Shown here piece by piece: positions 1 to 3,000 of a stretch of DNA of 64,000 bases. Location of the stretch: assembly GCF_003018255.1 (NCBI RefSeq), contig NZ_CP027440.1; one strand, given 5' to 3'. Source of the stretch: Escherichia coli (lineage in GTDB: Bacteria > Pseudomonadota > Gammaproteobacteria > Enterobacterales > Enterobacteriaceae). Position numbers: made by a program. Within the stretch, counting starts at the first letter, position 1. Each line of letters starts with the position of its first letter.

Positions 1-3000
1 CCCAGCATTTATTCCTTCTTCCCACAGATCCGGAGAAACATAGCCGCGAGCCATTCTGCCAACATAAATTTGCGGAACGGAGAGTGATAGATGTTGCTGA
101 CCAACATTAAACTCAGATGATGCGTCAGCCAAACGATCCCGAAGTGGTGTGCATGCGCTGTTGTCCGACACATGTTTTTCTGCCGAATGTTCCTTATTGT
201 CTAATAATGCAGATTTTTTTATGCCAAGACTGACAAGAAGATCTGTACTCAGGCATGGGATGAGATCTGCGTTATTATCATCTGCAATAAAAGTAATATC
301 CCGACTAGTCATAAATTCGTCGTTCAAATAAATGTCGACCCGATATGTACCAGGTGGTGCCTCGTGTCCCTTAGTAAAGGCGGATAAATCGACAGATTCA
401 GCAAGATCATTGCTTAAAAACCGTGGATTAAAATAATACTCTGCGTCAACGGGAAAAACCGCAGTTGCTAAGCCAAGGGCAATGGTAAGCCGTGCAAAGC
501 GAGGCAGTAGTAACACCTGATGCATACGATATGCCTTAAATGCGGCACGAAAGGCTGTCATTATTAATTCCGATTGAGTTTATTATTAATTAAGTCACTG
601 CTTTACTGCATGGTTGCCTTAATACGCGGAGTTAATGCACCGTAATCATTGATCGTCTGAAAACTGATATCTCCGGATGCGGCATGCGGGATATCCACCG
701 ATACTTCACCTTTTGGCGGCACCATGGTGTTTGGGAGATTGCTATTTCCTGCTTTCATATTCGTTACGGTAATGAAGTAGGGCGTTGGATTAATAAGAGT
801 AAGTTTGCTACCGCTGCGACGAAACCGAAGCATTGCAGGCGCTTCTTCAGGTGCCATTGCCAGGTTCGTGGGGCGATAAAACATTTTTATGCGGCTAATA
901 ATTGCCAGCTGTAATGTATTCTCATTCTTCTGGTCTTTTTCCATAGCAGGAATAGCTTTAACATTCACCCAGAACAGGCTTTCACGGTCGCCTGGTAACT
1001 GATGATTAGTGGCGTTGATTATCCGCAGCGTGTTCTCTTTTTTACCTTGCATGGAAAAAAGCGGTGGCGTAATGACAAACTGGGTGTCTTTTTGGTCACC
1101 CGCATTTTCTATCCATGACTGAATGAGATAGACACTGGCAGGATCATTATTCGTGACAGGCAATAAAACCTGTTTCTGGTTTGCCGGATAAATTACCCGC
1201 GTCGCACCCAGTGCGACAGCTGCGTTGGCAACGGTGCTATGGCAAGCAAAGAGCAATAAAAGTAACACTGTCGCCATAAAGGAAACAGAGTAGGGGGGAC
1301 GCGTAGTTTGCATCTGATGCATTCTCCATGTGTTAAGAGGATAAGCGGGGAAACCGTTACATCAGACAATCGGTAAATGTTGCTAATACATTGGCGAGTC
1401 GCCGGGTTTCCAGACTTAATGCGTTTGAAATAAATGTTGGTTCTCTTTTAATAGGAAAACCTTGCTATAAAGTAAATATTTTAAATAACAGTAAGTTTAA
1501 CTACTGTTGTTTATTGAACGTTTAGATATTATGTGATTTTTTCATACCGCTCCAAAACACAAACTATTCCTCATTAATAATGAGATGAACATTGGTGAAT
1601 TTCTCGGGTGTGCGTAGCCATGCCACACACACCCTGTTTCAATTTCAGATGACGTATAGCCATCTTAAGATTGAATTATAGATATTGAACTTTGAAGGTC
1701 GCATCAGCGTTTGCAGTACCAGCTACTGACTGCCCGAGAGCAATATAACGAGCCTGGAACGGCAATATATTCGTGCCATCAATCAAGTCAGTTTTAGCGC
1801 TAAAAGTGGCACCATCAAGTATTAATACCTCCCCCGTACGGTCCAAAATTTGAATACCGACATTTTGGGCAGAGCCTGCCGCTGAACTCTGCAGCGCTAA
1901 CGTATCGTCATTACTGGTGACAGTAGTACCCAGGAATGCAACAGCTGCATTACTGGAAACATTGGTATCACAATCATTCAGCTTGATATTGAAGCCAACG
2001 GCGGAGCTGAGGTCACCCGCTTTAGCCAGACGAGAAGAACGGACCTGACCCAGCTCAACCGTTTGGTTCATTGATTCTGAATCAATCGCACAAGCGGCAT
2101 TTACCACTTCACCTTTAAAATGAATAACACCGCCATTAACAGTGGTCGTTACTGATTCATCACCCTCGGCTGCGCTTACCGCAGCAGACGACATCGCCAA
2201 TACAGAAACGACAATCATACCGACATGTTTGAGTTTCATAATTCTCCAAAATTTATATTTAAGTAGCTGAATAAAGAGAGTTAACAATTAAGTCATTCTG
2301 TTATTGCTTATAAAACAAGAATCATTCTTAATTGGTAGTTGCCCTGAGAATATAGTTTCCAGGGTTATTACATTTCACGAAGAACGATAATATCTTTAAA
2401 TTACAAGGACACCTAATCACAACAAGTTTATTGCAGCACTTGTTGTAGAGAGTATTTGCAAAGACATTTTATGTCGCTAAATAACATGACGATTTCATTA
2501 TGCATGTTATTTATAAACCGTGACTAAACAGAATATTATTGCGAACAAGGGAAGTGTCAGGAAAGGTCAAGAGCGACCAATGGTTTATATGGCTATAAAT
2601 CATTAGCCATAGTTAATGTTTGCCTGGTGTAACTAACACGGAATTGCTCTAAACAGATAAGTGTAGGGTTTATTAAAGCTGACCGACAGACTTTCTTAAC
2701 CTGGTAATATCTCTCTTAGGTGACTCTCCAAACATCCGCGAATATTCCCGACTGAAATGGGATAAGCTTTCGTAACCGACAGCATAGGCTGCAGTGGTGA
2801 CATCGTAATGTTCATTCAGCATCAGTCGCCTGGCTTCATTGAGGCTTAGCCATTTCCGATACCGGAGTGGACTCATTCCCGCAAGCTGTCTGAAATGTTG
2901 ATGGAAAGAGGGGGTGTTCATTTGCACGCGGTTTGCCAGCCTGACTCTTCAACGCTGAGAAGATGCGGCAAACGGCAAACCTGCATACCAGCCAGCCTAT

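Follow-up and report, generated by a model that had tools for sequence, protein, structure and literature searches.

Fimbrial genes of an Escherichia coli contig assigned to the promoter-proximal part of the F9/Fml (Yde) chaperone-usher operon

The F9 (Fml) fimbria of Escherichia coli is a described chaperone-usher system, known as c1931-c1936 in strain CFT073, as fml in UTI89 and as F9 in O157:H7 (Ulett 2007; Wurpel 2014, PMC3966885; Kalas 2018, PMC5866590). Here, we compare with it the fimbrial genes found at positions 1-2239 of a 64,000-nucleotide stretch of the E. coli contig NZ_CP027440.1 (assembly GCF_003018255.1); the whole stretch is called the window below. F9/Fml is an established adhesin system that has been linked to low-temperature biofilm, calf gut colonization by enterohaemorrhagic E. 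coli, plant xyloglucan binding and chronic urinary tract infection, and that serves as a target for drugs and vaccines. The f9 genes are bounded by hipBA and ydeP (PMC3966885). In CFT073, rapid amplification of 5' cDNA ends placed the transcription start at a G that precedes the pilin ATG by 251 nt, with a -10 element CATAAT and a -35 element TAGTCG separated by an 18-bp spacer; H-NS binds the promoter region and keeps the fimbria repressed at 37 °C, and expression is seen at 20 °C (PMC3966885). The ligand of the tip adhesin FmlH is contacted by residues F1, Y46, D53, K132, N140 and R142 (PMC5866590). F9 has been classified as a core-associated chaperone-usher fimbria, and F17-like fimbriae as pathogenicity-island-borne and restricted to extraintestinal pathogenic E. 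coli (PMC3559732). The published prevalence of f9 is 60% of 42 genomes, 61% of ECOR strains and 80% of urosepsis isolates, and the genes were disrupted in all 2014-era phylogroup A genomes.

A first-pass annotation of the window had described a pilin gene, a full-length PapD-like chaperone gene and the beginning of a FimD-like usher gene as contiguous and uninterrupted, and had suggested that they might give a functional F17-like fimbria. The description was borne out: all three reading frames are open and carry the expected Pfam domains on the minus strand, and no insertion sequence (IS) element, frameshift or stop was found in any of them within 1-2239. The genes are as follows.

1-561, minus strand: 5' part of the F9/Fml usher gene (fmlC, orthologue of c1934), 187 codons, with the start codon at 561-559 and the frame leaving the left edge of the window; PapC_N, E 7.1e-42.
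603-1313, minus strand: F9/Fml periplasmic chaperone gene (orthologue of c1935), 236 aa with the start chosen by the NCBI Prokaryotic Genome Annotation Pipeline (PGAP); PapD_N, E 8e-40, and PapD_C, E 7e-12.
1676-2239, minus strand: F9 major pilin gene (fmlA, orthologue of c1936), 187 aa; Pfam Fimbrial, E 5.9e-31.

With E-values of this size chance is excluded as the source of the Pfam matches. Very probably, the segment 1-2239 represents the end of the chromosomal F9 (Fml/Yde) operon nearest to the promoter, with the major pilin and chaperone genes and the beginning of the usher gene. The assignment to F9 was based on the position of the locus, the order of its genes and the identity of its products. 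Positions 1-3200 were compared by megablast with 5,426 complete E. coli genomes, 5,402 of which were matched. No genome of this set is identical to the window. The top match was NZ_AP025214.2 (strain 2017.09.02CC), which is identical to the window over 1-3100 and differs from it by nine single-nucleotide polymorphisms (SNPs) in 12.2 kb overall. Its annotated order is ydeP, ydeQ, ydeR, ydeS, usher (883 aa), chaperone, pilin ('fimA'), a helix-turn-helix (HTH) pseudogene, hipA, hipB, an autotransporter pseudogene and lsrK. This order, ydeP-ydeQRS-usher-chaperone-pilin-yneL-hipAB, agrees with the published description and identifies the F9/Fml (yde) locus. The position of the locus points the same way, with hipA and hipB directly upstream in the window and ydeP 3' of ydeQ in the two nearest relatives.

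The second of these relatives, the Logan contig SRR25147227_15, was found through contigs that encode the exact HipA protein of the window and was used as a proxy for the left flank. It showed a single mismatch to the window (at 3142) in 14,531 overlapping bases. All six open reading frames (ORFs) of the operon are open in both NZ_AP025214.2 and SRR25147227_15, with products of 883 aa (usher), 176 aa (YdeS), 167 aa (YdeR) and 304 aa (YdeQ), and in SRR25147227_15 the usher has its PapC_N, Usher and PapC_C domains. The usher codons in the window are identical to residues 1-187 of the 883-aa usher of both. The first-pass annotation had left its reading dependent on the usher and the adhesin to the left; a full-length usher and open YdeS, YdeR and YdeQ frames were seen in the two nearest relatives, and neither has an usher truncated just beyond the window edge. 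Judged from these two near-identical sequences, the operon in this lineage would continue leftward with the rest of the 883-aa usher, YdeS, YdeR and the tip adhesin YdeQ (FmlH), YdeS and YdeR being predicted FimF-like and FimG-like minor or adaptor subunits, respectively.

The products were compared with those of the type 1 (Fim) system of K-12. Taken gene by gene in fim order, the identity was 67% to FimA, 58.5% to FimC, 57% to FimD (full-length usher), 45% to FimF, 57.5% to FimG and 47% to FimH. The pilin is identical at 187 of 187 positions to the O157 F9 pilin WP_001296758.1; its best match in the PDB was FimA (E 7.5e-68; 66.9% identity to K-12 FimA), and the alignment with FimA showed that the donor strand TTVNGGxxHFKGEVV, the Cys pair and the FKVQYL end with its penultimate Tyr are kept. 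The chaperone, which would be 239 aa long if started at the ATG at 1322, best matched FimC in the PDB (E 7.6e-89), and the subunit-anchoring Arg8 (ALGATRVIYP) and Lys112 (NVKAIP) motifs are kept relative to FimC when the sequences are read by eye. The usher is ∼98% identical to the B2 and O157 ushers. With its two-domain chaperone, its usher of N-terminal, barrel and C-terminal domains and the donor strand of its pilin, the operon fits the classical (FGS-type, gamma-1-like) chaperone-usher pathway. F9/Fml is the fimbrial locus with the closest paralogy to type 1, and the F17-like label does not fit it.

This paralogy is also visible in the annotation. The PGAP label of the pilin is 'fimA: type 1 fimbrial major subunit FimA', a name it receives because the F9 pilin passes the NCBIfam equivalog model NF011741 with 174 bits against a cutoff of 140. 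The name is a family-model match and not a sign of fimA orthology, and it amounts to a systematic mis-naming across thousands of genomes; the F9 pilin should not carry the 'fimA' label.

Upstream of the pilin gene lies a 433-bp AT-rich non-coding region with a guanine-plus-cytosine fraction (GC) of 0.29-0.37, in which the promoter mapped in CFT073 could be located by a promoter scan, and the leader by its length and by the base at the start site.

2240-2490, minus strand: 5' untranslated leader of 251 nt, with the start G at 2490 and a GGAG ribosome-binding site just before the ATG, matching CFT073 in distance and base.
2497-2526, minus strand: f9 promoter, with the -35 element TAGTCA (2526-2521), an 18-bp spacer and the -10 element CATAAT (2502-2497).

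The -10 element and the start site are invariant across the B2, O157 and K-12 sequences. The -35 element is TAGTCG in the B2 strain ZH063, as in the published CFT073 sequence; the window shares TAGTCA with O157 and K-12, the form outside B2 being slightly nearer to the consensus. In the leader and promoter region the GC is 0.29-0.35, which is consistent with the published H-NS binding.

The first-pass annotation had also stated that the corresponding K-12 locus is degraded to an usher fragment, and this could be traced to a single event. The MG1655 locus lacks both a pilin and a chaperone gene: it consists of ydeQ, ydeR, ydeS and ydeT, with yneL (a pseudogene) and hipA after them. YdeT is the C-terminal 382 residues of the usher (residues 502-883, 98% identity). 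A blastn comparison of the NZ_AP025214.2 locus (L001) with MG1655 revealed one deletion of 3,281 bp in K-12, which removes L001 positions 8137-11417, corresponding to window positions -863 to 2417; the junction shows microhomology of ∼1 bp.

2417/2418, no strand: right end of the K-12 deletion, from blastn and inspection of the junction; a further 863 bp are lost to the left of the window.

The deleted DNA holds 178 bp of leader sequence together with the whole pilin and chaperone genes and the first 475 codons of the usher gene; the loss of this coding sequence through the 3.28-kb deletion is why K-12 has no F9 fimbria. As the deletion begins downstream of the f9 promoter, K-12 keeps the promoter and ∼73 nt of leader fused to the truncated usher (positions 10003-10080 of the MG1655 locus, L002), so that ydeT-ydeSRQ may still be driven from the f9 promoter. 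The ydeT state of K-12 is a lineage-specific deletion and not the norm.

The frequency of the operon among the complete genomes was estimated with a 6.7-kb operon query. In 3,598 of the 5,426 genomes (66%), a single place accounted for 80% or more of the operon, a value that is an upper bound for intact copies since some copies with at least 80% coverage carry IS insertions (for example, H39 and H56). K-12-type coverage of 51% was seen in 9 of 40 rows sampled at even spacing along the ranking. The 66% count is in line with the published prevalence. By this measure the intact operon is the majority condition in E. coli and not peculiar to this strain.

Three other explanations were weighed against the assignment to an intact F9 operon. 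That the genes encode an F17-like fimbria, with a four-gene f17A-D-C-G operon and the GlcNAc (N-acetylglucosamine)-binding F17-G adhesin, was the part of the first-pass annotation that had to be given up, and we attach practically no probability to it. What speaks for it are the shared Fimbrial, PapD and PapC domains, which are generic and common to all chaperone-usher systems. Against it stand six genes in fim order, the 57-67% identity of pilin, chaperone and usher to FimA, FimC and FimD, and the adhesin. The lectin domain of YdeQ in the relatives is identical at 159 of 160 positions to PDB entry 6AOW, 'F9 pilus adhesin FmlH', the single difference being A113V, and the six ligand-contacting residues are all unchanged in this protein, whose gene lies outside the window. 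Further, the adhesin carries PF09160 (FimH_man-bind), and a PDB search with it at E <= 0.01 returned only FmlH and then FimH entries, and no F17-G or GafD. The locus is core-chromosomal, being present at least in part in 5,356 of the 5,426 complete genomes, whereas F17-like clusters of E. coli are found on pathogenicity islands (PMC3559732). The F17-like reading was rejected on operon architecture and adhesin identity.

The other two explanations accept the F9 identity and question its function, and two facts give them room. The window stops 187 codons into the usher, and the remaining 4.7 kb would be intact on the evidence of near-identical relatives rather than of the source itself; moreover, open frames alone do not prove expression or assembly, and F9 is cryptic under standard 37 °C culture. 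Both facts weigh against an intact and functional operon. If the operon were broken in the source strain just outside the window, in the usher, a minor subunit or the adhesin, the genes in the window would be non-functional remnants as in K-12. The window does end at usher codon 187, about one third of the complete E. coli genomes do not reach 80% coverage of the operon, otherwise complete copies sometimes carry IS insertions, and the nine SNPs in 12.2 kb mark the best complete genome as a different isolate. We nevertheless regard such a break as very unlikely, given that the six ORFs are open in both nearest relatives, that the look-up with this HipA allele gave 23 more similar places, and that the common K-12-type deletion would have taken window positions 1-2417, which are present. 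A less improbable, yet still unlikely, explanation is that the operon is intact and permanently cryptic, never assembled naturally owing to H-NS silencing and the loss of the neighboring AraC-like regulator. The AT-rich promoter region (GC 0.29-0.35), the published H-NS repression (PMC3966885) and the adjacent regulator pseudogene fit this view. On the other side, F9 expression in CFT073 is on record both at 20 °C and in the inflamed bladder (PMC3966885; PMC5866590), and PMC3966885 reports no evidence tying upstream regulators to f9 control. Nor is a regulator annotated at that position in ZH063, the only B2 genome examined, the CFT073 flank lying outside the comparison. The coding sequences themselves show no decay, the pilin being 100% identical to that of O157. 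We favor an intact F9/Fml operon that likely gives a functional fimbria in this strain, with an expression that would be conditional, following the CFT073 precedent, and cryptic in standard 37 °C culture. An intact operon in the strain would carry the colonization potential of F9/Fml. The operon is ordinary and already described; the correct label is F9/Fml instead of F17-like, and the significance beyond annotation is small.

The gene content, domains, motifs, pocket residues and promoter were observed directly, and the following assembly mechanism is modelled on type 1 fimbriae and on what is published for F9. Transcription would start 251 nt before the pilin gene, at the sigma-70 promoter, with H-NS silencing at 37 °C that would be relieved at 20 °C. 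The subunits would be exported by Sec, captured by the chaperone through donor-strand complementation and polymerized at the usher by donor-strand exchange. The expected product is a pilin rod with a tip fibrillum of FmlH, YdeR and YdeS, in which FmlH would bind terminal galactose/N-acetylgalactosamine (Gal/GalNAc) glycans, namely Gal-beta1-3-GlcNAc and the Thomsen-Friedenreich (TF) and Tn structures.

Between the pilin and chaperone genes there is a non-coding spacer that contains a conserved hairpin.

1314-1675, minus strand: AT-rich non-coding spacer of 362 nt in the position of fimI; GC down to 0.295.
1606-1634, minus strand: hairpin with a perfect 13-bp stem and a 3-nt loop, 42 nt 3' of the pilin stop codon; fold computed.

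The spacer has a mean column identity of 97% across three lineages. The hairpin is invariant among them, and in the B2 and O157 strains its flanks vary. A 121-nt fold around the hairpin has a minimum free energy of -41.7 kcal/mol (z -5.4), and none of 200 shuffled sequences was as stable. The spacer was also considered as a decayed fimI, which was dropped after tblastn and blastn gave nothing significant. When 1-3300 was scanned against Rfam at E <= 1, nothing but a below-threshold chance snoRNA match came up, and no family for the spacer. Plausibly, the hairpin may act as an mRNA stabilizer or as a partial attenuator by which pilin would be kept in excess of the assembly proteins, as downstream of other major-pilin genes. 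Somewhat more doubtfully, it may represent an undescribed post-transcriptional element of F9, either a 3'-end stabilizer or partial terminator or the source of a fimR2-like small RNA; with the same reserve, and as a separate matter, ydeT-ydeSRQ may be transcribed from the f9 promoter in K-12.

The region upstream of the operon contains the following two features.

2673-2939, minus strand: AraC-family HTH remnant, yneL pseudogene, 84-89 codons; HTH_18, E 1.9e-21.
3215-4531 (hipA) and 4531-4797 (hipB), minus strand: hipBA toxin-antitoxin genes, the upstream flank of the F9 locus; from the PGAP annotation of NZ_AP025214.2.

The disrupted AraC-like regulator fragment that had been noted beside the fimbrial genes was recovered as yneL, with its HTH_18 domain and its status as a PGAP pseudogene. 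It is annotated with a 'missing N-terminus' in both NZ_AP025214.2 and O157, and it aligns to K-12 yneL. Upstream of 2939 the frame shifts into an ORF at 2918-3097, and the frameshifted remnant extends to ∼3097. The E. coli copies of yneL differ from each other by frameshifts and are frameshifted relative to a 128-aa Klebsiella form. This Klebsiella homologue has both HTH motifs and looks complete as a two-HTH DNA-binding domain. A search of 5.8 billion proteins for a full-length ancestor found no close homologue longer than 155 aa.

HipA of the window has 438 aa, of which 425 are identical to K-12 HipA (440 aa); the C-terminal tails read RRLSREWY in the window and GRLSREYGSK in K-12. Beyond hipB there is an autotransporter pseudogene of the yneO / ECSE_1600 family, ∼1.9 kb long, at window positions 4969-6945 on the minus strand and at 13990-15879 of the NZ_AP025214.2 locus. 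Compared with the K-12 pseudogene of 5.4 kb, the copy in the window has undergone two further deletions. The decay is thus reciprocal, with more of yneO kept in K-12, yet half of f9 lost there. NZ_AP025214.2 also holds ∼1 kb of extra sequence within the range of window positions 3000-25000.

Compared with the known F9/Fml systems, the operon has in common the locus between ydeP and hipBA, the six-gene order, the O157 pilin sequence, the FmlH lectin pocket, the mapped promoter and the 251-nt leader. The differences are only allelic and consist of the -35 element TAGTCA in place of the TAGTCG of CFT073 and B2 strains, A113V in FmlH and an usher that is ∼98% identical to its B2 and O157 counterparts. 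The K-12 MG1655 remnant is orthologous, with YdeS, YdeR and YdeQ 97-99% identical and the promoter, ∼73 nt of leader, yneL and hipBA kept; with the pilin and chaperone genes absent, usher codons 1-475 missing and the leader otherwise deleted, it cannot assemble a fimbria. F17 fimbriae (f17A-D-C-G) resemble the operon in their membership of the chaperone-usher class, and their four genes, their GlcNAc-binding F17-G lectin of a different fold family and their plasmid or pathogenicity-island site do not apply here. Type 1 fimbriae (fimAICDFGH) are paralogous and have the same assembly logic and gene order, with an adhesin in the same two-domain FimH-type fold family. Where type 1 has fimI, the F9 operon has the 362-nt non-coding spacer. 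No fimB or fimE recombinase genes are annotated beside the F9 operon in NZ_AP025214.2, a fimS-like invertible element not having been searched for. According to the literature, the F9 adhesin binds Gal/GalNAc, in contrast to the mannose bound by FimH, and F9 is controlled by H-NS and temperature.

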